DNA of 64,000 nucleotides from a phage: assembly GCA_019326865.1 (NCBI GenBank), contig GCA_019326865.1_4101.1. One strand, given 5' to 3'. The notes beneath the pieces were generated by a model that saw nothing but the letters and a program-made list of their open reading frames with translations, was not told where the DNA came from and did not search any database. Within the stretch, counting starts at the first letter, position 1. Each line of letters begins with the position of its first letter. The position numbers and the translations under genes are program-made. Below, piece by piece: positions 3,418-63,931 of this stretch.

Positions 3418-5706
3418 ATGAATCTTACTCAATTGTTCAAAAAAAGCGACGAACTGGCAACATCTCTCGGTCATACATTCTTGACTATTGACCATGTAAG
3501 TGCTACAGTACTAACCATTGATAGCATCAAGAATGTGTTTGAAGATATGAATATTGATGCAGACAAATTACATAATCGCTTAATGGACTATCTTAAAAAT
3601 ACATCGATTCCACATGCTCCAAAAAGTACCCAAGATGAAGATGCCAATCGTACTTCACTACTAGTGAATCGTGTCGTACATGAGCTTTCAAAAAAATCTG
3701 TCATTGAACAACTAAAAACGGATGATTTTTCAATTGATGCATATTTTGTGTTATTTGAATGCTTGTCTTTCCCAAACACTGCACTCGAAGCTGCGTTGAA
3801 AGAAGAAGGTGTTAGTTGTACTGAGGCTGCTCGTGCACTACAGAAACATGTTGAGACACTTAATAAGGGTATCAACCTACAAAGCATTAATGATGAACCT
3901 ACTGGAGATAAAAAAGTGGCTCAACCACAACAATCATCTAAACAAAAAGGTTTGGAAGACTACACAACAAATCTAACCGCTCTTGCAAAAGAAGGAAAAT
4001 TAGATCCGATGATTGGTCGCCAAAAAGAACTGTGTGCACTGATTGAGACACTAGCTCGTAAAACTAAAAAGAATGCAATTCTTACTGGTGAAGCTGGTGT
4101 AGGTAAAACACAAATCATTGACGGACTAGCACAAGCCATCGCTGATGGTAATGTACCTGAACATCTGAAAAATGTTGAAATTCTTTCACTAAATGTTGGT
4201 GCATTGACTGCTGGTACAAAGTACCGTGGTGAGTTTGAAGAACGCATCGATAATTTACTAAAAGAACTAAAGAAACGTGAAAATACTATTGTTTTCATTG
4301 ATGAAATTCATATTATGGTTGGTGCAGGTTCTGCAAGTAATGGCTCGATGGATATGAGCAATATGTTAAAACCAGCACTGTCACGTGGTGAGATTCGTGT
4401 GATTGGTGCAACAACATACGAAGAATATCGCAAAAATATCGAGAAAGATAGTGCACTAACACGTCGTTTTATGAAAATTGACGTAGTTGAGCCGACAATT
4501 GATGAAACTCGTACAATTGTTAATGGGTTAAAGTCAACTTATGAAAAATTCCATAATGTTGAGTTTACCGCCGATGCCATGGATGCTGTAATTTCTCTCA
4601 GCGATAAGTTCCTGAAGAATAAACACTTCCCTGATAAAGCAATTGACCTAATGGATGCTGCTGCGGCTAAAGTTCGTTCACGTGACAATAATAGTAAGCT
4701 TATTACTGCAAGTTTGGTTCAAGAAGTGGTTGCTGGTATTGCAAACTTAGATATCAATGTGGTTGCATGTACCGAAAGTGAACGTATGCGTAATCTTCCA
4801 GATGCACTTCGTTCACGTGTATATGGTCAAGATGAGGCTATTCAAAAATTAGTTGATAACGTAATGGTTGCTCGTGCGGGTTTGCGTGATAAATCAAGTG
4901 TTCAGGGTGCATTTATGTTTGTTGGTCCATCTGGAACTGGTAAAACTGAAATCACCAAAGCATTAGCTGACGCAACTGGTTCTGAACTTATTCGTTTTGA
5001 TATGTCAGAGTTTTCACAAGAACATACAGTATCTAAACTTATCGGTTCACCTCCAGGGTATGTTGGTCATGATTCTGGTAACGGATTACTGCTAGATAAG
5101 ATTGAACAGTTCCCTAATGCAGTTCTGTTACTTGATGAAATCGAAAAAGCAGATCGCAAAGTACTACTAACCTTTCTACAGGTTCTGGATGAAGGTCGTT
5201 TGACTGGTTCACAAGGAAAAACTGTATATTTTAATAACGTAACTGTTATTATGACTACAAACCTTGGTGCAGCAGATTCAACTAAACGTAGTATTGGTAT
5301 GAGTGGCAGTGAAACTGCACAAGATAAAGCAATCAAAGCATTTTTACCACCTGAATTCATTAACCGTATTGATAGTATCGTTACGTTTAATGAACTAAGC
5401 CGTGAAGCAATTGATAGTATCATTGACAAATTTATTGGAAGCTTAAATGACCAAGTAAAAAGCCGTAATGTAAAAGTTACTCTCACAAAAGCAGCACGTG
5501 AATGGTTGGCACAAAATGGTGTTCAAGCTGGCATGGGGGCACGACCTATGAAGCGTACAATTGAACAAAACATTCGTGTTCCACTAGCGAAAGAAATGTT
5601 GTGTGGAACGCTAGTGAATGGTGGTAACATCACATTTGATGTTATTAATGGTAAAATTGGCATCAAGCCAAAACGCACCAGAACAGTTGAAAAATCACTA
5701 GCCTAA
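3418..5706 (+). CDS. ClpA-type AAA+ unfoldase (two nucleotide-binding domains, Clp N-domain, IGM ClpP-docking loop)
   Basis: Walker A GEAGVGKT and Walker B IVFIDEIH (NBD1); Walker A GPSGTGKT and Walker [10 protein letters not shown] (NBD2); no long ClpB-type middle domain; SIGM tripeptide loop at nt 5293-5301 in the position of the ClpA IGL loop; track start 3397 is GTG, ATG 3418 has GGAG RBS. Confidence 0.85.
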
Positions 5707-5741: not shown

Positions 5742-8700
5742 TTATTTAACTAACAATATATTCTTAATATCACTCCCACTTATTCGTAGGCTATTGGTAT
5801 ACATTGAAAGGTCTATTGTGTAACCATTATGAGTATAATGTTTAAATTTATCATAACTACCCAAATTAATACCATTAAAAGAATATGTAGTATTAAGTTT
5901 AAAGTCATGCTCAGCACTATACATTACTCCACGGAGCAAATTATTTGCATTTCTGACTTCAACTTTTTCATACCCAATCGATATAATGTCATTCCTGTTA
6001 GCAGAAGAACCTAATAACACATTATTTCTAATATTATAAGGACTTACTGATATAGGTTGAGCAACATACGTTGTATTTTCTTCACTGATAGTTGTTATGT
6101 TAGTGATAGTACCACCGACAACACCAATATATATATTGTCAACCATTGGATATTCATAACCCCATATACCTTCATTATTTTTGAATGGTTTGATATCATT
6201 CGCATCATATTCAATTACGTTAATTTCTAAACAATCAGGCATTTTAGTTCTTACCAATTCACTAAGAACACCATCCCCAGTAATTGGTAGGTTATACCCG
6301 TTATCTATAGTAATTCCATCGTCATTAAATATTTCGTTCGATACAATCCAAACATCAATATCATCAGGTGTTACACCGTCATTATACTTACCACCATTTA
6401 AAGTAGTATCATAAAAAACGTCATAATTAATCACATCAATAGTGTAATTTCGGTTTTGTTCATATAATTTAATACCATCTTTGACAAATTCTGAGTCAGT
6501 AAATGTTCTAACACGAACAATGTTCAAGGCAAGAGGCTGTACTGGCTCATTTTGTTGTGCAAGTGTGATATTATCATAACGAAGAACAGCACCAGAAGTA
6601 TCAACTAATTCAATCGTTTCCTTACCAGTAGTTCTTACTGTGAAAAGGATAGGAGTTGTATTATGTTTGATATTAGATACACGCAATATGGTTTCCCATT
6701 TATGGTTTTGATATCTTATAAAGTCTTCACCATCAGGAGTGAAAATCATCACCTTATCACCATCAGATAAGTCATTGTCAACAATTTCCGCTTCAGTCAA
6801 GCTATTAATAGATCTCACACGATAAAAATATTTTTCATCAAACGGTGCTGATTTTTTATTAATATCATTTTCAACCTTAGCATATGAAGGAATACTAACA
6901 ATTGCTTCTGTGTGTTTATATGGATTTATAATTGCCATACCTTCAGTTTGATATCTACTATTATTACGTAATTGCACTAGTGACACGTTGTCAAACCCAT
7001 ACCCATCAACAGTAAATCTAATATGCCCAACATCACGACCAGATGGATTTATATCAGATATGTCAATAATATAAGGATCAACTTCGTCGTCTTTAACTTC
7101 CCATTTTATGGTAGAAGTTTGTGATTCTAATGCAAGGTTATCAAATGCATTCATATCATTAAAGTACTTAGCTTCAGAAATACTATCAAGTATAAATTGA
7201 TAGTCTGAATACATTGGGTTATTTGTATCTTGTGGTAAATCGTCAAGATTTATTTCCGCAAGTTCAACCATTTCACCATTTGTAATAAAATAATCTTCCA
7301 TGAAATCATCAATACTTCTGTTATCTGGTATACTTTGGTTTACACCGTTAACATTTAAATATACATATTTCCTTGGCATCATAGTAATAGCATAGATATC
7401 AATTGGTGTTTTTGAAAGAATTTCTTCCGCTTTTTCGTACTTGTCGGTAGCATCTTTGTCAAACAACCCTCTCATACCTGCTAATACATGAACTGCATCT
7501 GAATAGAAACGAGTATCTCCACCAACCTCATCATAACGATAAACGTATACACCATATTCAACTTCTAGTTTTACTTTAATATCATAGTCTGATGCATCAG
7601 GATGTTTATCTTTAATTAAAGAAATATATTTTTCATATAATTCTTTACTTATTTCAAAATACCCATAGTTATAATCATTACTAGAAGAAAAGCCTAATGG
7701 AAGTCTTGTGCTCGGATTATCATTATAAGTCAATCCACTGAACCCACAACCAACTTCATCATGAATTTTATCATCACTGATATCTTTATAAAGTTTCAAG
7801 CGGTTGGCTAATGTGTTATACTGTACATATTGTCTAAGGTCAGTAAACATTTCATTATGCGTTGATTCTTTATAAACTCGTTCCAAAGTAGCAGTAAATT
7901 TATCAGTGGCTTCTAAATCATCTGCATGATCTTTATACCATTGGTTCACACCATGTGCAGTTCCAAGTGTTACATCCAATTCTGGATAATAGATTTGCAT
8001 TAGATACGCATTAACAAGGTCAAACGATTTTTCATTATATTCTGGGAAAGAATATATATAACGTTGTAATTCATAGTTATTAACAGAATCTTTTTCATTT
8101 GTTTGATATTTTTTATTAACACTAACTAAATCATTAATGTTTGCCAAATCTTCGTTTGGTTTACATTGAATGTTATCATAATGCATAATAATATCAATTT
8201 CTTGGAATCTTCTATTTGGGGTAATAAAATCACTAGGTAATGCACCAACTTGTTCCCATTTTTTAGTAACTTCATTATATTGTGCGTACTCGTAATCCCA
8301 AATATCTTTTTCAGTTTTAATCCAAGAACCATCAACGAAAATATACCCATTAGGATCTAAATCGTTACAAAGACCTTTTATTAAATCATCATCAGATGTT
8401 TTTTGTTCTATTTGTGAACGAATTTTAGTTCTATAAGGTTTAACCTCTTCAAAGTACTCAACAATTTGATTAATCAAATTATCATTTGAGTAATTTTGAA
8501 CTAAAGATTGTTCCAACCCAACAATATAGATATAGGAAGTTTTAAATACCCAATCTACAACACTTTGTTCGACGTGAACATATTTTACCATATCAAACAC
8601 AATTTCGCTTTGATGTAAATCGAAAGAATGTTTAAGTAATGCTAGTGCTTTACGAACATTTATTTCACGATTACTAAGGGAACCATCATCATTGTAAACA

Positions 8701-11700: not shown

Positions 11701-14700
11701 CAAGATATAAATTCCCCAGTTACAAGAGAATTCTGGCTCCACATCACAAAATCTTTAGCAATAGTGTTCCAATCTTGCTGAACGCCGCCATCATTTACAT
11801 CTTCGAAGATCCAGCCATGTTCTTTAAGATACTCACCATAACCACAAATAAAAGTATAGACTTCTTGGTAACTGTTAAAAACCGTTCCATATTCAATAGA
11901 AGCCTCAGACTTCCATTCATTGTAATGGACAACATTACGGTTTTCTAATTTAATAGTTACTTTTCGACCATTTTTCACTGGGAGTTTATATTTAAATTTA
12001 GCACCAACCAAATCATATCCATCGATTTGATATGCACTGCCATTCCATGTAATTTTGATTGCACTCATCTGTTCATCACGAATATTATTCGAACGTACAA
12101 GTCCAATTGTTTGGTTTTCTTGAGAAATCAACCCAAATGATTTAGCATTGAATGTTAGTTGGTCTGCTTTAGTAAAGCCTCCAATTTTATGTCCTACATT
12201 TACATAAGAAGAACGAACAATATCACCATATTTTGTAGTAATGTTTTTATTTTGATACATCAAATAATCACTAACGAACATTTGATACCCAATTGTTCTT
12301 GTGTTATTTTCACCATGAACAGTGGTTTTTTTATCAAAATTAACACGATTACGGGTATCCCCATAAAGAAATTGTTCACCACCAGTGAATATTTCTTTTA
12401 AATTATCATTTCGGGTGTCCCAAAAATAGTTTGCGAATTGTGCTGGTTTAGCTTTATACAATAGCATCATTTGGTCATATGCAAATAATGTGGTATTCAT
12501 GTAAGTGAATTCCATGTCACCCATATCACCATATGCCCAAGGTTCTGCTCTGTGATTTAAAGAACCAGATACTAAACCTAAAATCTCAGGGGCAATATAC
12601 TCAACAACACAAATATCCACACCAGATGATGTTTTATTTCCAGTTTTTGTAATTTTAAATGGTTGTACACCAAATCTTCTATATTTGTTATACTGACCAC
12701 GACGTTCACCAGATAAAATTGTACCAGTGCTACTATCCCCAATAGTATCATTAATATTCCAAAGACCGCTAGGAACTAAATCACCTTGTTCATCTGTGAC
12801 AAGTGCTTCATATACATATACAACATCACTATCACGTTCACCAACTTGAACAGCAGTTGGTTCATATTCTTGGTTCCACCAAGTAGGACGTTGTGTAAAT
12901 CCAAACATTTCCCATGGATGTGTTGCTGGACGATATGTACCATATTGGTCAGTATAGATTGCACGCCACGAACCACGAGCAGGAATTTCAGTACTTTTAC
13001 CATCAACCATATAATAGGTTCCAGTGTAGTTCCATGTTCTCCAGTTACTTGGGTCATAATCATGTGTACTATTACTAATACCATTGGATGCTGTAAAATT
13101 AATATAACCACGTAATAAAAGTGTTTGTTTTTCTTCTGCACTATATTCAGTTTTTGTAAAATATGGAGTAGGGAAAAGGTCATCACTATTCAATACTGGA
13201 ACATAATCAACATCTTTGAATTTATTATCAATACTATTAAAAATTCTATTTTCCAACTCATAAACAACATCATCCATTTTATCAACACCATTAATTACGC
13301 GATATGCTTTTGAAATGATACCAGTATGGCTAATGTTATAAAAGCTTGGTTTACTACCAGCAGTTAGAAATGTAGCTTTCTCAGGAACATATGCTTGTAG
13401 AATACCCAAAAACTGTGGTGTTGGTGGTATAAATGCACGAATAAGTCCAGATGTGCTTCCTACATTATCATAATAGAACGGGAATGAGCTATCACGTCCC
13501 ATATTGATAGTAGTTAAAATAGAATCAACAATACTTGCTGCACTATTTTGTAAAAAGTTTGATGGATTTTCATTATACATACGAAGCATTTGAGTATTAA
13601 ATTTATTAATGAATCTGAAATATTCAGATTGCATAAACATAGTTGCTTCAAATAAATCAATATCTTCATTTGCAGTATGAGCCATCAATGGGAGCATAGA
13701 AGCTTCATTTTGAATAATTTTAGTTCCTACTCCATTATTCACTAATCCCTTAGCTAAACGTTCTTCATAATCGTTGAAGTCATCAGCATAACCACTAGTG
13801 ATATTCTGTTGAATAATATCCTGAAAATGAAGAGTATAGTCTCCTTGATTAATATATATAATATTGGAGTTATATGGGTTATTTTGTAAGTTAATTGGAA
13901 CTTCATATGCACCTAATTCTTTATCAGGTGTTACAGTTCTACTATAAGTTCTAATTTGGATAACAGAATCATCATCTAAATCTATCGAACTATCAAGTGT
14001 GATGCTTTGTACTTGACCTTTTGATACATTCTTTGTATATTTTGATACATTAACACCATCGACATTAACTTCAATAATATCAGAATCATTATCTAAAACT
14101 TTTTGAGCTAATTCAAACGTATGATTATATTTTAAAATCTGAATACCATCACCACTAATCTGATGCCAGTCCAAATAAGTTTCACGTTCTGCTTTATAGT
14201 ACTGATATGTTCTATCAACTTCAATAACATATGCATACATACCATCAACAGGTTCTTTGAACACTTCCATGTCATAAACAGTACTGAACACTCGATACAT
14301 GTCAGTACGTTGGACCTGTGGAGTTTGTTTTACATATTGTTTAGAGTATTCTTTTGAACGAACCCAATCAGTTTTTAGATTCATTTTATTAGTTTCATCA
14401 ATAATGTTATAATAATACAATCCACCAATTTCAACTTCAACACCAAGATGGTCATATGTATAACGTTGTGATTGCAAAAAGTTTTCATATGTGTAATAGT
14501 TGTAATCACCAAGTTCAATGTTATACCCATATACGCTATCAGTAGCGTAATTGTAATTTATTTTAAAACCAAATAATTGTGAACCTTTAAAGTTACTGGA
14601 TGGGTATGTTGTACTATTATCTAGTTTAATCCCATTGCGATCATAAAGTTGGAACTGTGGGAAGACGTTAACACTAGGTTTAGACTGTGCACGAACCCAC

Positions 14701-26316: not shown

Positions 26317-26344
26317 GGGACAAATCACTTTTTAGTGCTATAAT
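26317..26344 (+). promoter_or_regulatory. sigma70-type early promoter for gp55-like gene
   Basis: GGGACA-N16-TATAAT preceded by GTGC. Confidence 0.55.
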
Positions 26345-30424: not shown

Positions 30425-30450
30425 AAAGGGAGCCTTAGCTCCCTTTTTTT
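30425..30450. terminator. bidirectional terminator between gp46 and endo VII-like genes
   Basis: AAAGGGAGC-ctta-GCTCCCTTT then T7. Confidence 0.75.
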
Positions 30451-30926
30451 ACATCAACCATATTTAATTTACCGTCCTTAATCAGCTTTCTAGCTTGTTT
30501 TGCACGAGTAGAAGTGTTACTGCCAGGGACAACTCCGAACCCTTCCAGAATCTCGTTTTGCTGCGTTGCTGGGAGCCTTTTAAATTTATTAGTATCCACT
30601 GTTAGTGCCGTGTGATGTATAACTTGCTCTTCTGGTGGAATATTATTGTTCTTTTCAAGGTAGTCAGCAAGGTTGCGTAGTACTTCATGTAATGGCTTAT
30701 CTGTTAAATGACTAAGACAGCGTTTAAATGAATTTGCAACCCTTCCTTCCCATCCATTCACCTCATTTTGAAGAACCTGTCTACAATGTTGATTTCCACC
30801 ATGATAGTGATCCAGTACTGGTTTAGTTATTTTTATGCCTATGATGGGGTCAATGCCATTTTGTTTCTTTAGCAATTCATTTCGATAGTTTGCAGCATCC
30901 TTACTATCTTTTAATCTTTTTTTCAT
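30435..30926 (-). CDS. endonuclease VII-like Holliday-junction resolvase (163 aa)
   Basis: LDHYHGGNQHCRQVL...NGWEG resembles the T4 endo VII LDHDH...CN.CN..EG region as recalled; stop codon sits in the loop of a bidirectional terminator. Confidence 0.55.
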   Translation of the reverse strand: MKKRLKDSKDAANYRNELLKKQNGIDPIIGIKITKPVLDHYHGGNQHCRQVLQNEVNGWEGRVANSFKRCLSHLTDKPLHEVLRNLADYLEKNNNIPPEEQVIHHTALTVDTNKFKRLPATQQNEILEGFGVVPGSNTSTRAKQARKLIKDGKLNMVDVKKGS

Positions 30927-31018
30927 AATTCCTCACCAAACTATTTGTCATCACAATATTTATAGATTAGTTATTTGCAATATTTTAAGTACTTAATTAA
31001 TATTTTATAAAAAAATGT

Positions 31019-31046
31019 GAGACAACTTTAAAGTTTGTGCTATAAT
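31019..31046 (+). promoter_or_regulatory. sigma70-type early promoter driving non-coding island
   Basis: GAGACA-N16-TATAAT preceded by GTGC. Confidence 0.5.
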
Positions 31047-31526
31047 ATTTGTTGTAGTAATGACAATCCTGTTGAATGCAGAAATGCATATAAATTAGAA
31101 CCTGATCCTATCGAAAATGTAGATGGCAGATGAGCAGTTCAACAGTGCGATGAGCAAAAGAAACCCGTTAGATGTGGGCATAGTTTGAACCCCTCACGGC
31201 AATGCGGCTCAATAAAGAACTCCGATAAGCATACAGAGAGTTCCTAGATAGACATATAAGGATCGCACCTTACCAGATTTGCTAAGGGAGTTTATTAAGT
31301 GATTTTTAATAAACAGCCTGAAGTTTGATTGTATAGACTTTCAGGTGAGTGTCAGGATGATTAAGACTGACGACCGTTGCATATGACCGTGATAGGGAGA
31401 AACCGAGCAACCCGCTTCCGTTTGCGATTGATCTTTTTACAATATAGATCCGTCCAAAATTCACGATACAATAAATGCTGAAACCATCAGCGTCAAGAAA
31501 TAGAGACTTCATTGTCTCTTTTTTAT
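31047..31526 (+). ncRNA. candidate non-coding RNA locus
   Basis: Early-type promoter at 31019-31046, hairpin plus T-run at 31503-31526, no ORF with RBS in between, locally higher GC with complementary segments; structure not computed. Confidence 0.25.
31503..31526 (+). terminator. rho-independent terminator ending non-coding island
   Basis: AGAGAC-ttcatt-GTCTCT then T5. Confidence 0.55.
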
Positions 31527-31732
31527 TGTCTTCATTCCCCTGCGGGGGGATGAAAATGTCCTCAACAAATCCCGTCAAGTATTAAATCTTTTAAAGTTCT
31601 TTATAATTAATTTAATGAAATGAATATGAGTTACGTAGTAACGAATATTCTTCAGCTAACGAATGAAATGAGTTAGATGAATCCAATAATATTAAAATTA
31701 ATTCTTCCATAATTCAAATAATTCTGTAATTT

Positions 31733-31763
31733 AATGAAAAAAAACCAGCAACAATGTGCTGGT
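31733..31763 (-). terminator. rho-independent terminator after 69-aa ORF
   Basis: ACCAGCA-acaatg-TGCTGGT with 8-9 nt T-run on minus strand. Confidence 0.6.
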
Positions 31764-31772
31764 TATATGGGA

Positions 31773-31982
31773 TTAGTGCTTCTCGTTTTGTTTTTTAATT
31801 TTTTTATTAAAAGACTTAACTAACAAGTCTCTATCTATTAATGGCATATTAAGAAGTGTTCCGTAATCAATATTATCCATATATACAGAACACTCCATCA
31901 GTGCATTTTTGATTTCGGACTTATTCAGTTCTATCTCCTTTAAAACTTCTTGTATTTCTTCAGGAGATGACTGGAGAAGCAT
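31773..31982 (-). CDS. hypothetical protein (69 aa)
   Basis: ORF with TAATG stop/start overlap with upstream gene; followed by hairpin plus T-run terminator. Confidence 0.4.
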   Translation of the reverse strand: MLLQSSPEEIQEVLKEIELNKSEIKNALMECSVYMDNIDYGTLLNMPLIDRDLLVKSFNKKIKKQNEKH

Positions 31983-32818
31983 TACTCGAAAAAATGACTA
32001 GGATCATATTTTAGTCCATCAATTTCCCATTGATGATTACATCCATCACATTCAACTTCCATACTATGTGAAACTCCAATTTCAAGTACTTCATCCATTT
32101 TTTCACGAATTAGTTTAAGAACTCCTTTTGATTGTTGACCAAGCCATTCATTAATGAATTCTTTTTCAACTACTTCATCGCCATCTGGAGTGATGATTTT
32201 TGCAATAACTCCACCAATCATATCAAAGTTTAGTTGTGCCATATTTTCAAACACTTCAGAAAATATTTTTACTTTTTCCTCTTGTTCAATCTCAGCAGTT
32301 TCTAGAAACTTAGTTTTCTGCTGCTCACTGAACATACGCTCAGCAAACGATGAATATTCTTTCCATGTTAGTGGTCTAAACTCTAAACGTAGTCCATTAT
32401 CTAAATCAATAGATGGGATTTCTTCGAATGCTTGTGCAGTTTCAAGAAGATATGATAGATTACGTTCAAAACGACCTTCTTTTTCACATTCAGGACATAC
32501 AGCGTTAATATCATATGTTTCTTCTTTAGATGCAACTTTAATAGCAATAAGAAGCATTTCAACGTCATTTACATATAACTCATCAGCATCAATAACATTA
32601 GGAACACAGTTTTCAATGACACGTGATACTGCATCGCCGTTTAGTAACATATCTGGTGTATTGAGTGTCATTTCATCACGTGCACTACGTGCACAAACGC
32701 CACATTTGACACCTTTTGGACCTAAAACTCCGTCTTTATAAGGAATAATTCCGTTACTAACTAATTTTGTACTGATCTCTTCAATTTTAGTGTACTTAGC
32801 AAGTGGATTCATAGCCAT
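31982..32818 (-). CDS. acidic zinc-ribbon protein, late gene of unknown function (278 aa)
   Basis: Three CxxC pairs (CGVC, CPEC, CDGC); GGAG RBS; late-promoter-like boxes upstream. Confidence 0.5.
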   Translation of the reverse strand: MAMNPLAKYTKIEEISTKLVSNGIIPYKDGVLGPKGVKCGVCARSARDEMTLNTPDMLLNGDAVSRVIENCVPNVIDADELYVNDVEMLLIAIKVASKEETYDINAVCPECEKEGRFERNLSYLLETAQAFEEIPSIDLDNGLRLEFRPLTWKEYSSFAERMFSEQQKTKFLETAEIEQEEKVKIFSEVFENMAQLNFDMIGGVIAKIITPDGDEVVEKEFINEWLGQQSKGVLKLIREKMDEVLEIGVSHSMEVECDGCNHQWEIDGLKYDPSHFFE

Positions 32819-46047: not shown

Positions 46048-46075
46048 GGGACACTTTAAGAAGAACTGATATAAT
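46048..46075 (+). promoter_or_regulatory. sigma70-type early promoter
   Basis: GGGACA-N16-TATAAT (TGa). Confidence 0.5.
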
Positions 46076-49997: not shown

Positions 49998-50025
49998 GAG
50001 ACAAGCATCATTTTTGAGATATAAT
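49998..50025 (+). promoter_or_regulatory. sigma70-type early promoter for clamp-like gene
   Basis: GAGACA-N16-TATAAT. Confidence 0.45.
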
Positions 50026-53585: not shown

Positions 53586-59936
<6,351 letters not shown>

Positions 59937-62326: not shown

Positions 62327-63931
62327 ATGATTGATATATCCAAATTATATAATATGATAAAAGACATTCCCCATCCTAATTCTCGTAAAAAAATACTAAT
62401 GGGGGAAATTTCCGAAGAAGATATGATGGAGTTCGGAACAACTGAATTAAAGCAGATTGATTATTGTATAATGAATAAATTAAAACATGTACCATTAGCA
62501 CCGTGCGGGGAAAATAAAAAATACCATAATGGAAAATATTTGAATGTATGTGAAAAATATAAACTTGGTGACAATCATTCATGTATAGTCTGTCATGAAA
62601 ATAAGACAAAAGAAACATTATCTAAAATGAAGAAAACTTCTTTATCTAAATATCAAACTGAATTTCCTAATCAGTCCATTGATGTAAAAAGAAAGATACG
62701 AGAAAATTCTAATTTTACTGAAGATGAAAAAAACGCAATTAATGAAAAGAAAAAAGAAACATCATTGAAACAATTCGGTACTGAACATCCAATGAAGAAT
62801 AGTACTGTTAAGTTGACACAAATTCAGTCCAGAAAAAAGACACAAGAGCAAACTAACAACAAAAGAATTAAAACTTTAATGCAGAAAAAAACATTAAATG
62901 TTTCTGAAAATTTGGATAAATCAAAATATGAAATTGTTGAATTGCGATTGGGGACTAATGTAAAAAGTACATTCAGGTGTTTACAGTGTGGACAACAATT
63001 TGATGCATTAAGTCATTGGGGATGTAAAGTTGTTTACTGTCCACAATGTGATGTTTCACCTATGCGTTCTAATATGGAAAATGATGTTGTATCTATCATA
63101 AAAGAAATAGAACCAACTATTGATATTGAACTTAATAATAGAAAAATCATAAAACCAAAAGAAATAGATATATATTTGCCTAAGTATAATTTGGGTATAG
63201 AAGTTAATGGAATGTACTGGCATTCTGATAAATTTAAGTCAGAAAACTATCATCAAGATAAAGTTAAAGCTGCTATGTCATCTGGAATGAAATTATTAAC
63301 AATTTATGATTATGATCTTTCAAAAAACAAAGATGTAATAGTTTCAATGATAAAAAATTCAATGAATAAATCTTCTTTTAATGTTTATGCAAGAAAATGT
63401 GAAATTAAAGAAGTACCTAAAGTTGAAGAACGTAATTTCCTAAACACCTATCATATTCAAGGATTTGTTGGTTCAAATATTTGTTATGGTTTGTATTATA
63501 ATTGCGAGTTAGTATCATTAATGTCTTTTGGTAAGCCAAGATTTAATAAAAATTTTGAATATGAAATTATACGATTTTGTTCAAAAGGTAATGTTGTTGG
63601 TGCAGCAGGGAAGTTATTAAAACATTTTGAGATAACTATCAAGCCTAAGTCATTGATTACATATGCTGATTTACGATATGGATATGGTAAAACTTATGAA
63701 AAAATAGGTTTTGAATACAAATATATTACTAAACCTGGATATTTTTATGTTAATGGAAAGGGTGATGTGGTTACTCGATATCAAGCACAAAAACATAAAC
63801 TTCTGAAGAAATACCCAGAATATCAAAATGAGACAAACATTACTGAATATGATATAATGGGGTCTGAAGGATATTTAAAGATATATGATTGTGGAAACGC
63901 TGTGTATGTGAAGGAATACAACAATGAATAA
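62327..63931 (+). CDS. homing-endonuclease-like protein B (paralog of 41388-42983)
   Basis: Same architecture: CxxC pairs, IDIYLPKYNLGIEVNGMYWH nuclease motif, conserved C-terminal domain; ATG 62327 with AGGA RBS just after the uvsX terminator. Confidence 0.55.
   Translation: MIDISKLYNMIKDIPHPNSRKKILMGEISEEDMMEFGTTELKQIDYCIMNKLKHVPLAPCGENKKYHNGKYLNVCEKYKLGDNHSCIVCHENKTKETLSKMKKTSLSKYQTEFPNQSIDVKRKIRENSNFTEDEKNAINEKKKETSLKQFGTEHPMKNSTVKLTQIQSRKKTQEQTNNKRIKTLMQKKTLNVSENLDKSKYEIVELRLGTNVKSTFRCLQCGQQFDALSHWGCKVVYCPQCDVSPMRSNMENDVVSIIKEIEPTIDIELNNRKIIKPKEIDIYLPKYNLGIEVNGMYWHSDKFKSENYHQDKVKAAMSSGMKLLTIYDYDLSKNKDVIVSMIKNSMNKSSFNVYARKCEIKEVPKVEERNFLNTYHIQGFVGSNICYGLYYNCELVSLMSFGKPRFNKNFEYEIIRFCSKGNVVGAAGKLLKHFEITIKPKSLITYADLRYGYGKTYEKIGFEYKYITKPGYFYVNGKGDVVTRYQAQKHKLLKKYPEYQNETNITEYDIMGSEGYLKIYDCGNAVYVKEYNNE

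Follow-up and report, generated by a model that had tools for sequence, protein, structure and literature searches.

We wondered what is encoded in a gap of about 0.5 kb between two groups of protein-coding genes of a jumbo phage. The gap lies in a 64,000-nucleotide (nt) stretch of DNA (GenBank assembly GCA_019326865.1, contig GCA_019326865.1_4101.1; the whole stretch is called the window here) that derives from an Asteriusvirus, a 121Q/PBECO4-like jumbo coliphage of ~350 kb, and its nearest record is phage UE-S1 (97.8% identity across 30900-31800). An earlier inspection of the letters alone (the sequence-only reading) had proposed that positions 31019-31526 form a promoter-to-terminator unit producing a stable, structured RNA. 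Our analysis supports the view that this locus is a stand-alone gene for a large non-coding RNA: it has its own promoter, no conserved open reading frame (ORF) and a covarying structure on the transcribed strand. By sequence and predicted fold, the RNA is a new class of large, pseudoknot-rich RNA that is absent from Rfam and from the literature we searched.

We analyzed whether pairing in the element is conserved. Already as a single sequence it folded better than all 100 dinucleotide shuffles (z = -3.9). RNAalifold predicted 72 pairs from 28 members, 42 of them with compensatory changes, and mutual information with average product correction (60 members, effective number 42) recovered the RNAalifold helices together with crossing long-range pairings. 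The structure model comprises 82 pairs in 18 helices, including four pseudoknots and one tertiary mini-helix. These pairs were tested on an alignment of 45 members, all less than 93% identical. Standard pairs were formed by 96.2% of the cells, compared to 77.3 ± 0.4% after column shuffling and 39-44% when the partners were slid by 1-3 columns. Both sides had changed in 63 of the 82 pairs (43.6 in column shuffles, 22-32 in slid controls), and the covariation score was 0.513 as opposed to 0.177 for column shuffles and <0.1 for slid partners. Not one of 500 shuffles reached any observed pairing measure. Within helices we counted 228 G-U cells versus 34 A-C cells, and the plus strand is therefore the folding strand. 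The comparison with related phages, which had been suggested as a check, thus came out strongly in favor of a structured RNA, and the complementary segments that had been spotted by eye turned out to be real helices with compensatory changes (CCTGAAG with CTTTCAGG is helix H7; GAACTC with GAGTTC is helix H5).

Conservation was not confined to paired positions. At a mean column identity of 59%, the 45-member alignment contains 94 invariant columns and ~70 more that are at least 90% conserved. Many of these conserved positions are located outside the modelled helices, namely in GAUGAG, GCAaAaGAaACCcG, CGGCaA..GGC...AUAAA, GAUAGA..U, AAGGGA, GACCGU, ACCCGC, the two A..CGUCA motifs and GGGG.A. Constraint of this degree is typically seen where an RNA has a tertiary fold and binds specific partners.

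Could the region encode a protein instead? The sequence-only reading had seen no ORF with a ribosome-binding site. No ORF is conserved among the homologues in strand, frame or position, and the longest stop-free stretch varies in all three respects between members. The only stretch resembling a Shine-Dalgarno (SD) sequence plus AUG (GGGGGGAUGAAAAUG..) is hit by one-nucleotide indels among members. We also rejected a 90-amino acid (aa) minus-strand ORF (31306-31578), an 11-codon MKMSSTNPVKY frame following GGGGGGAUG and starts downstream of the SD-like UAAGGGAG, for none of which frame, start codon and position are conserved. In 121Q and other curated records the stretch is unannotated, while several automatic annotations place "hypothetical proteins" there. 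Such entries over copies of the RNA were seen for 121Q gene 516 (247799-247954, minus strand) and in records SHEFM2K, JP4, E9.1, SD-2_S15 and others; they are probably spurious gene calls. The UE-S1 record carries a 'repeat_region' (locus coordinates 4163-4320) over the 5' third of the RNA, corresponding to about 31062-31219 of the window. We found no local direct repeats under this feature, and the label probably reflects similarity between dispersed paralogues.

Known RNA classes did not account for the element either. ARAGORN reported no genes for transfer RNA (tRNA) or transfer-messenger RNA (tmRNA) in the window, in line with the by-eye failure to see a cloverleaf. Infernal with the 4227 models of Rfam 15 gave no matches at gathering thresholds in the 64-kb window, and at E<=10 nothing matched inside the RNA body of the window copy and 10 divergent members. 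The absence of both Rfam and tRNA matches fits an RNA that is neither a tRNA nor a member of a described class. Group I and group II introns were not detected by their Rfam models (Intron_gpI, group II), and the element is intergenic in every genome examined. We considered RNase P RNA since a few short strings resembling its S-domain and CR-IV/V motifs can be found by eye (GCAAA..CCG, ACGG.AAA, AUAAGG, AGAA..CCCG.CUU); no model matched at E<=10, the order of the covarying helices is unlike P1-P18, and the would-be P4 strands are ~10 nt apart and form a local pseudoknot. An array resembling clustered regularly interspaced short palindromic repeats (CRISPR) was rejected because there are no direct repeats. 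Our literature search found no prior description of the RNA and no transcriptome of any RaK2-like enterobacterial phage, Asteriusvirus included.

Where does transcription of this RNA begin? The promoter that had been read at 31019-31046 on the plus strand is present: it consists of GAGACA (31019-31024), a 16-nt spacer and the extended -10 element TGcTATAAT, and it agrees with the consensus at 10 of 12 positions. Judged from this arrangement, transcription would start near 31053. The promoter as such holds, whereas the label 'early-type' does not, as the -35 element is not the canonical TTGACA and the promoter is of a phage-specific and probably middle-type class. An extended -10 element would let host sigma-70 use such a promoter. 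The class, (G/T)G(A/G)(A/G)AC-N16-17-TGnTATAAT, precedes the family copies that were aligned with their upstream flank. Six sites of the GRRAC/TGAAAC plus TGnTATAAT class occur in the window, all on the plus strand, versus 1.4 expected. Besides the RNA promoter, the pattern count (GRRAC-N16-19-TATAAT) yielded plus-strand promoters at 26317-26344, 46048-46075, 49998-50025, 59832-59859 and 63830-63858. The first of these directly precedes the late sigma-factor gene, an arrangement also reported for phage CBB. The same "divergent RpoD-like" promoter, in which TGAAACG replaces TTGACA, is described in the genome paper of CBB, which lists 18 copies, mostly before DNA-synthesis genes, and finds the class also in GAP32 (PMC5259590). 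In one group of paralogues (seven loci; 6725-6765 in one of them), a terminator-like hairpin with a U-run, GGACAG...CUGUCCUUUUUU, follows ~4 nt after the -10 box. For transcripts arriving from upstream this hairpin would be a full terminator, and the RNA's own transcript would start in or at it; it may represent a 5' protective stem or an insulator.

In 59 unique homologues the structured core of the RNA (~450 nt, 31053-31500; this and all RNA elements below are on the plus strand) is conserved from end to end. Its 5' part is held together by pseudoknot A, a pairing of CUGUUGA (31069-31075) with UCAACAG (31139-31145) that was detected by mutual information and in which seven of the eight pairs of helix 1 are compensatory. 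The downstream partner forms the loop of hairpin H3 (31134-31136 with 31146-31148), and two further hairpins are enclosed by the pseudoknot: H1 (31076-31080 with 31085-31089, GAAA loop) and H2 (31108-31112 with 31122-31126, loop GAAAAUGUA), the stem of the latter existing in 14 different complementary variants. Helix H4 follows and is paired in 100% of the cells. Its two parts, H4a (31151-31155 with 31207-31211) and H4b (31165-31168 with 31196-31199), are separated by the conserved internal loop AAAAGAAAC / CAAUGCG, and among members the helix switches between GAGC/GCUC, CAGC/GCUG, GUGC/GCAC and CCGA/UCGG. H4 closes a variable apical hairpin (31172-31194) that takes two alternative forms among the paralogues.

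The central domain (31202-31283) opens with the tertiary 3-base pair (bp) helix AUG/CAU (31202-31204 with 31253-31255; pair counts GC:32/AU:13 and UA:44/CG:1). It contains hairpin H5 (31217-31222 with 31238-31243), all six pairs of which are compensatory, and hairpin H6 (31257-31261 with 31268-31272). Pseudoknot B, in which the H5 loop AGC (31228-31230) pairs with GCU (31281-31283), is weaker (82% paired). The domain is followed by the invariant single-stranded UAAGGGA (31284-31290).

Pairs of the 3' domain (31317-31472) are among the top mutual-information pairs. Hairpin H7 (31317-31327 with 31334-31345) presents the loop AUUGUA (31328-31333), which pairs with UACAAU (31467-31472) to form pseudoknot C (seven of seven pairs compensatory). 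Hairpin H8 (31350-31355 with 31367-31372) comes next. Helix H9 (31388-31392 with 31461-31465, five of five pairs compensatory) is associated with pseudoknot D inside it, where GUUGC (31376-31380) with GCAAC (31407-31411) crosses GGGAG (31395-31399) with CUUCC (31415-31419); pseudoknot D is 100% paired, and three of five and four of five pairs, respectively, are compensatory in its two stems. Helix H10 (31422-31424 with 31455-31457) completes the domain. A hairpin module of ~30 nt (31430-31459; stem GAUCU/AGAUC, loop ..UACAAUAU.., then CCGUCCAAAA) occupies an alternative or additional site after UAAGGGAG in most other members (alignment columns ~335-372), and the copy found in Escherichia coli has both. 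Judging from these positions, the module appears to behave like a movable structural cassette.

The 3' boundary of the gene differs from what had been proposed. The hairpin and T-run seen at the end of the island exist (AGAGAC/GTCTCT, then TTTTTT) and form an intrinsic terminator at 31502-31525 with a 6-bp stem, a 6-nt loop (hairpin 31502-31519) and U6. However, while the promoter start of the unit holds, its end at 31526 does not: the conserved unit runs to ~31590, with further hairpins to ~31685, and the internal terminator is optional: about half of the copies lack it, and members with gaps across its columns are seen in both the 28- and the 45-member alignments. Upstream of it, a first motif, ..CCAUCAGCGUCAA (about 31484-31497), has A..A.CGUCA invariant. 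Downstream, a G-rich 10-bp hairpin, UUCAUUCCCC-UGCG-GGGGGAUGAA (31531-31540 with 31545-31554), is present in all copies; this helix 18 is 98.7% paired, and its sole variation is C to U on one side, giving G-U pairs. A second motif, CAACAAAUCCCGUCAAG (31564-31580; family form CAACAAAUC(C/U)CGUCA), follows, and GGGG.A....A as well as AAA.C.CGUCA are invariant in the 45 sequences. About 40 nt past the second motif, the family alignment shows two more conserved hairpins. The first (31622-31627 with 31645-31650) has GAAUAU/AUAUUC around GUUAC-GUA-GUAAC and, in most members, the form GAAUUGAG-[stem]-ACGAAGUGA-[stem]-AACGAAAAUUC, ending in AAAAUUC. The second, CUAAC/GUUAG (31656-31660 with 31672-31676), has the family form UUGA-C[stem-GNA-stem]G-GCAA, and eight of nine predicted pairs were compensatory in 26 sequences. 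Within it, a 'TTGACA' that could be taken for the -35 element of the next gene was rejected as such, because it is the 5' strand of the covarying hairpin. The whole cassette thus spans ~31019-31685, the presence of the last hairpins on the same transcript being putative. The predicted RNA is ~470 nt long if it stops at the internal terminator and ~540 nt long if the conserved tail is included; the downstream hairpins would extend it to as much as ~630 nt.

The GC content of the island is 0.40-0.42 as compared to 0.21-0.24 in its flanks and 0.34 in the whole window, which agrees with the locally higher GC that had been noticed. On one side the RNA locus is flanked by the endonuclease VII gene (30435-30926, minus strand) and on the other by two minus-strand genes convergent with the RNA gene, a 69-aa ORF and the baseplate hub gene (31773-32818). 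A strong terminator-like hairpin, AACCAGCA...TGCTGGTT, at 31743-31764 is preceded on the minus strand by an A-run and followed by a T-run; it closes the convergent 69-aa/baseplate-hub operon, would also block read-through from the RNA gene, and is kept at orthologous loci of other genera.

We next asked how widely the RNA is distributed. A blastn search of 50,697 phage records found the RNA core in 73 of them, with identities to the window down to ~70% and at four to five places per genome. The hosts belong to nine genera (Escherichia, Klebsiella, Salmonella, Erwinia, Yersinia, Cronobacter, Serratia, Pectobacterium and Xanthomonas). In the complete 121Q genome there are exactly four copies of full length (90.3, 192.8, 247.4 and 326.6 kb), each of them on the plus strand and in a gap between annotated genes; only the 247-kb copy is overlapped, by the hypothetical coding sequence of gene 516. 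A 2-kb stretch of 121Q without annotated genes (135194-137161) is not a copy of the family according to nhmmer; we found only two short tandem repeats there, and further features that lack annotation may be present. Filtering with nhmmer of the hits from pattern scans of IMG/VR and JGI metagenomes left the 59 unique full-length members (55-95% identity), and complete contigs among these represent jumbo-phage genomes of 349-371 kb. One metagenomic genome of 355 kb carries five co-oriented copies. The RNA is one of four to five ancient paralogues in every RaK2-like jumbo phage. The genes downstream are unrelated among the paralogues and convergent at the window copy. In some metagenomic genomes an ORF resembling HNH/AP2-type homing endonucleases (MEEWKAINDYEKYAVSNFG...) appears to stand right after the cassette, and elsewhere the same slot seems to be taken by an ADP-ribosylglycohydrolase-like gene.

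The family is restricted to RaK2-like jumbo phages of Enterobacterales and Xanthomonas and, in addition, rare bacterial islands. Among complete E. coli genomes, 2 of 5426 carry a homologue, and Serratia fonticola is the sole carrier among 185,579 species representatives. A plasmid collection contained no homologue. The E. coli copy, which retains a promoter of the same form, is located in an island adjoining ffs together with an integrase fragment, IS3 and a resolvase. In the island of strain LR-29-1, an iteron- or operator-like cluster (locus 12971-13022) consisting of ATTATCGATCGTT twice in tandem plus an inverted copy lies ~450 nt downstream of the RNA, in the same unannotated gap of 1.4 kb. 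The S. fonticola copy occupies one edge of an element that carries a large serine recombinase along with two ParB/RepB-like genes. This island edge adjoins two tandem rof (Rho-modulator) genes (locus 4775-5490), an unusual duplication. By tblastx, the bacterial loci have the RNA region alone in common with the phage. We therefore rejected the idea of a co-travelling protein gene, as only the RNA is shared and the Pfam domains of the neighbors differ between the bacterial loci. The bacterial copies share no more than 67-73% identity with the closest phage copy sampled, yet they have lost none of the invariant positions and retain 72-76 of the 82 pairs. This argues for a function without phage neighbors.

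What might such an RNA do? We give an even chance to a trans-acting, self-contained RNA that would either form the core of a ribonucleoprotein or work as a ribozyme or a specific binder. Host RNA polymerase would transcribe it from ~31053, and the molecule would fold into a compact tertiary structure and itself be the functional product. Its invariant unpaired nucleotides would contact a partner or form an active site, with UAAGGGA, GAUAGAcAUAU, AUAAAG, GACCGU, ACCCGC, both A..CGUCA motifs and the G-run hairpin as candidates. The partners might be conserved components of the bacterium or factors that the phage provides in trans rather than the product of a neighboring gene: the module moves alone between phages and bacterial islands under the same constraints, and a partner encoded beside the RNA is therefore unlikely.

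In kind, the nearest parallels to the RNA are GOLLD, ROOL and OLE, large 'ornate' RNAs of bacteria and phages that constitute Rfam families and have been visualized by cryo-electron microscopy (PMC12286853). Like the RNA described here, they are stand-alone genes for RNAs (500-800 nt) with many helices, pseudoknots and conserved unpaired nucleotides and without an assigned biochemical function, and GOLLD and ROOL are often borne by phages or prophages. The likeness is one of size, complexity and phage association and not of sequence or fold, since no Rfam model matched even at E<=10; moreover, our RNA is multi-copy, with four to five paralogues per genome, unlike GOLLD, ROOL and OLE. The stable RNAs of T4, to which the sequence-only reading had likened the locus, offer an analogy of position, whereas homology was not found. 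T4 species 1 and 2 (RNA C and D) are likewise non-coding RNAs of a T4-related phage without an assigned function. T4 stable RNAs are ~120-140 nt long and lie within the tRNA cluster; in contrast, the RNA studied here is ~540 nt long and not near tRNAs. A further comparison is offered by PA5oct, a related jumbo phage that its describers group with 121Q/RaK2 and for which RNA sequencing revealed four 'putative lncRNAs' (ncRNA001-004), ORF-free transcribed regions of 0.24-0.62 kb, two of which make up 1-5% of the phage reads (PMC7318152). We rejected homology to these for ncRNA001 and ncRNA002, which did not match the family profile (nhmmer E>20).

Several points weigh against a trans-acting RNA. 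No transcriptome of the phage group that might show its expression turned up in our literature search. Conservation continues past the intrinsic terminator into invariant elements and C(GNA)G hairpins, which could mean a cis-acting or DNA-level role. The co-orientation and dispersal of the copies within a genome would suit origins of replication too, and the long retention of four to five diverged paralogues goes beyond a simple dosage model. One may speculate, with little confidence, that the RNA is a new class of large catalytic or self-assembling RNA deployed by jumbo phages, and at times by other mobile elements, without a dedicated protein, and that the paralogues, matched in structure and diverged in sequence, hit different targets or form a hetero-oligomeric RNA machine. 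The two-form apical hairpin and the movable UACAAUAU hairpin would then be exchangeable modules of the paralogues.

Might the copies instead be RNA-primed replication origins? This is the main rival to a trans-acting RNA, although we regard it as unlikely. The structured transcript would form a persistent RNA-DNA hybrid near its 3' tail, which would either be processed by RNase H or act directly as a leading-strand primer, as for ColE1 RNA II and the middle-promoter R-loops of T4 oriF and oriG, and on the displaced strand the downstream C(GNA)G hairpins would fold and serve as signals for loading or priming. Four to five dispersed, co-oriented copies per ~350-kb genome fit this idea, several origins per genome being found in T4 as well. 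Middle promoters drive the T4 origins, and the class found here is middle-like in that it is tied to DNA-synthesis genes in CBB. The RNA resembles ColE1 RNA II as a promoter-driven non-coding transcript of ~0.5 kb, close to the length of RNA II, and like ColE1-type origins it needs no linked protein gene. Its 3' tail is invariant in sequence and lacks compensatory changes; stable GNA-triloop hairpins and AT-rich DNA (GC 0.24) come after it. The lineage encodes T4-like UvsW and RNase H, and the bacterial copies are near ParB/RepB-like genes in Serratia and, at a distance of 450 nt, near the iteron-like cluster in E. coli. On the other hand, four pseudoknots and 94 invariant nucleotides far exceed the known needs of a primer transcript. 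The fold is far more complex and constrained in sequence than those of the ColE1 and T4 systems, and an RNA-DNA hybrid, an RNase H site and an equivalent of antisense RNA I are putative here. No RNA structure is known to be common to the T4 origins, nor is ColE1 RNA II known to be pseudoknotted. Unlike the RNA copies, the T4 origins are not homologous to each other. About half of the copies have a terminator upstream of the proposed hybrid site. No conserved antisense regulator was seen, and minus-strand promoter-like sites occur at chance frequency. The GC skew of 121Q, which shows no inflection at the copies except where gene orientation switches, is uninformative.

An RNA acting in anti-defence or in conflicts between mobile elements seems less probable still. 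As a special case of trans action, it would be a decoy or inhibitor of host immunity, or, when borne by the host, would interfere with phage. Mobile elements commonly trade anti-defence genes, and precedents exist in RNA anti-CRISPRs and pseudo-ToxI RNAs. Such a role would explain both the sharing with other mobile elements and the expansion of paralogues; it also suits the finding that the module stands alone, close to recombinases, in integrated islands of E. coli and S. fonticola, and an extended -10 promoter that would probably work with host sigma-70 early in infection. However, we found no resemblance to a known target, and the RNA is far larger than known decoys. We set aside mimicry of a type I-E CRISPR repeat, the similarity (CCCC..GGGGAU) being superficial and constant across host genera; there are no direct repeats, and CRISPR repeat databases were not searched. 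The invariance of the 10-bp G-hairpin across nine host genera argues against mimicry of one particular CRISPR repeat. Carriers are also rare among bacteria (2 of 5426 E. coli genomes, 1 of 185,579 species representatives).

We see very little room for a cis-acting leader, whether as a giant sensor akin to a riboswitch or as a processive antiterminator of the put type that modifies the polymerase transcribing it and governs read-through of the internal terminator into the genes beyond. The position of an intrinsic terminator within the conserved unit, with conserved sequence beyond it, is what such a leader would show, and the next gene is co-oriented at three of the four 121Q copies. Yet the window copy and its orthologues face convergent genes and then a bidirectional terminator, and the internal terminator is missing in about half of the copies. 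Downstream genes are unrelated among paralogues, and the bacterial copies keep the RNA and not the downstream genes.

That the locus is no RNA gene at all but a dispersed DNA repeat (a mobile-element remnant or a protein-binding cluster) or a set of small-protein genes, as the UE-S1 'repeat_region', the hypothetical coding sequences in several records and the overlap of 121Q gene 516 with a paralogue might suggest, is scarcely credible, because G-U tolerance on one strand and compensatory pair changes are signatures of RNA and not of DNA or protein, and there is no conserved ORF, terminal inverted repeat or CRISPR-like direct repeat.

Large structured non-coding RNAs are rare, and each of the few classes (RNase P, group I/II introns, tmRNA, OLE, GOLLD, ROOL, raiA) opened new biology. 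The RNA described here resides in cultivable phages of E. coli, Klebsiella, Salmonella and Erwinia that are under development for therapy; the phages can be grown on E. coli K-12. The finding implies that RNA is encoded by ~2-3 kb of each genome that dozens of GenBank records either leave blank or populate with spurious "hypothetical proteins". If the copies were origins after all, they would provide the first assignment of replication origins for RaK2-like jumbo phages. Finally, the copies in bacterial islands suggest that the RNA is a module travelling between phages and other mobile elements.

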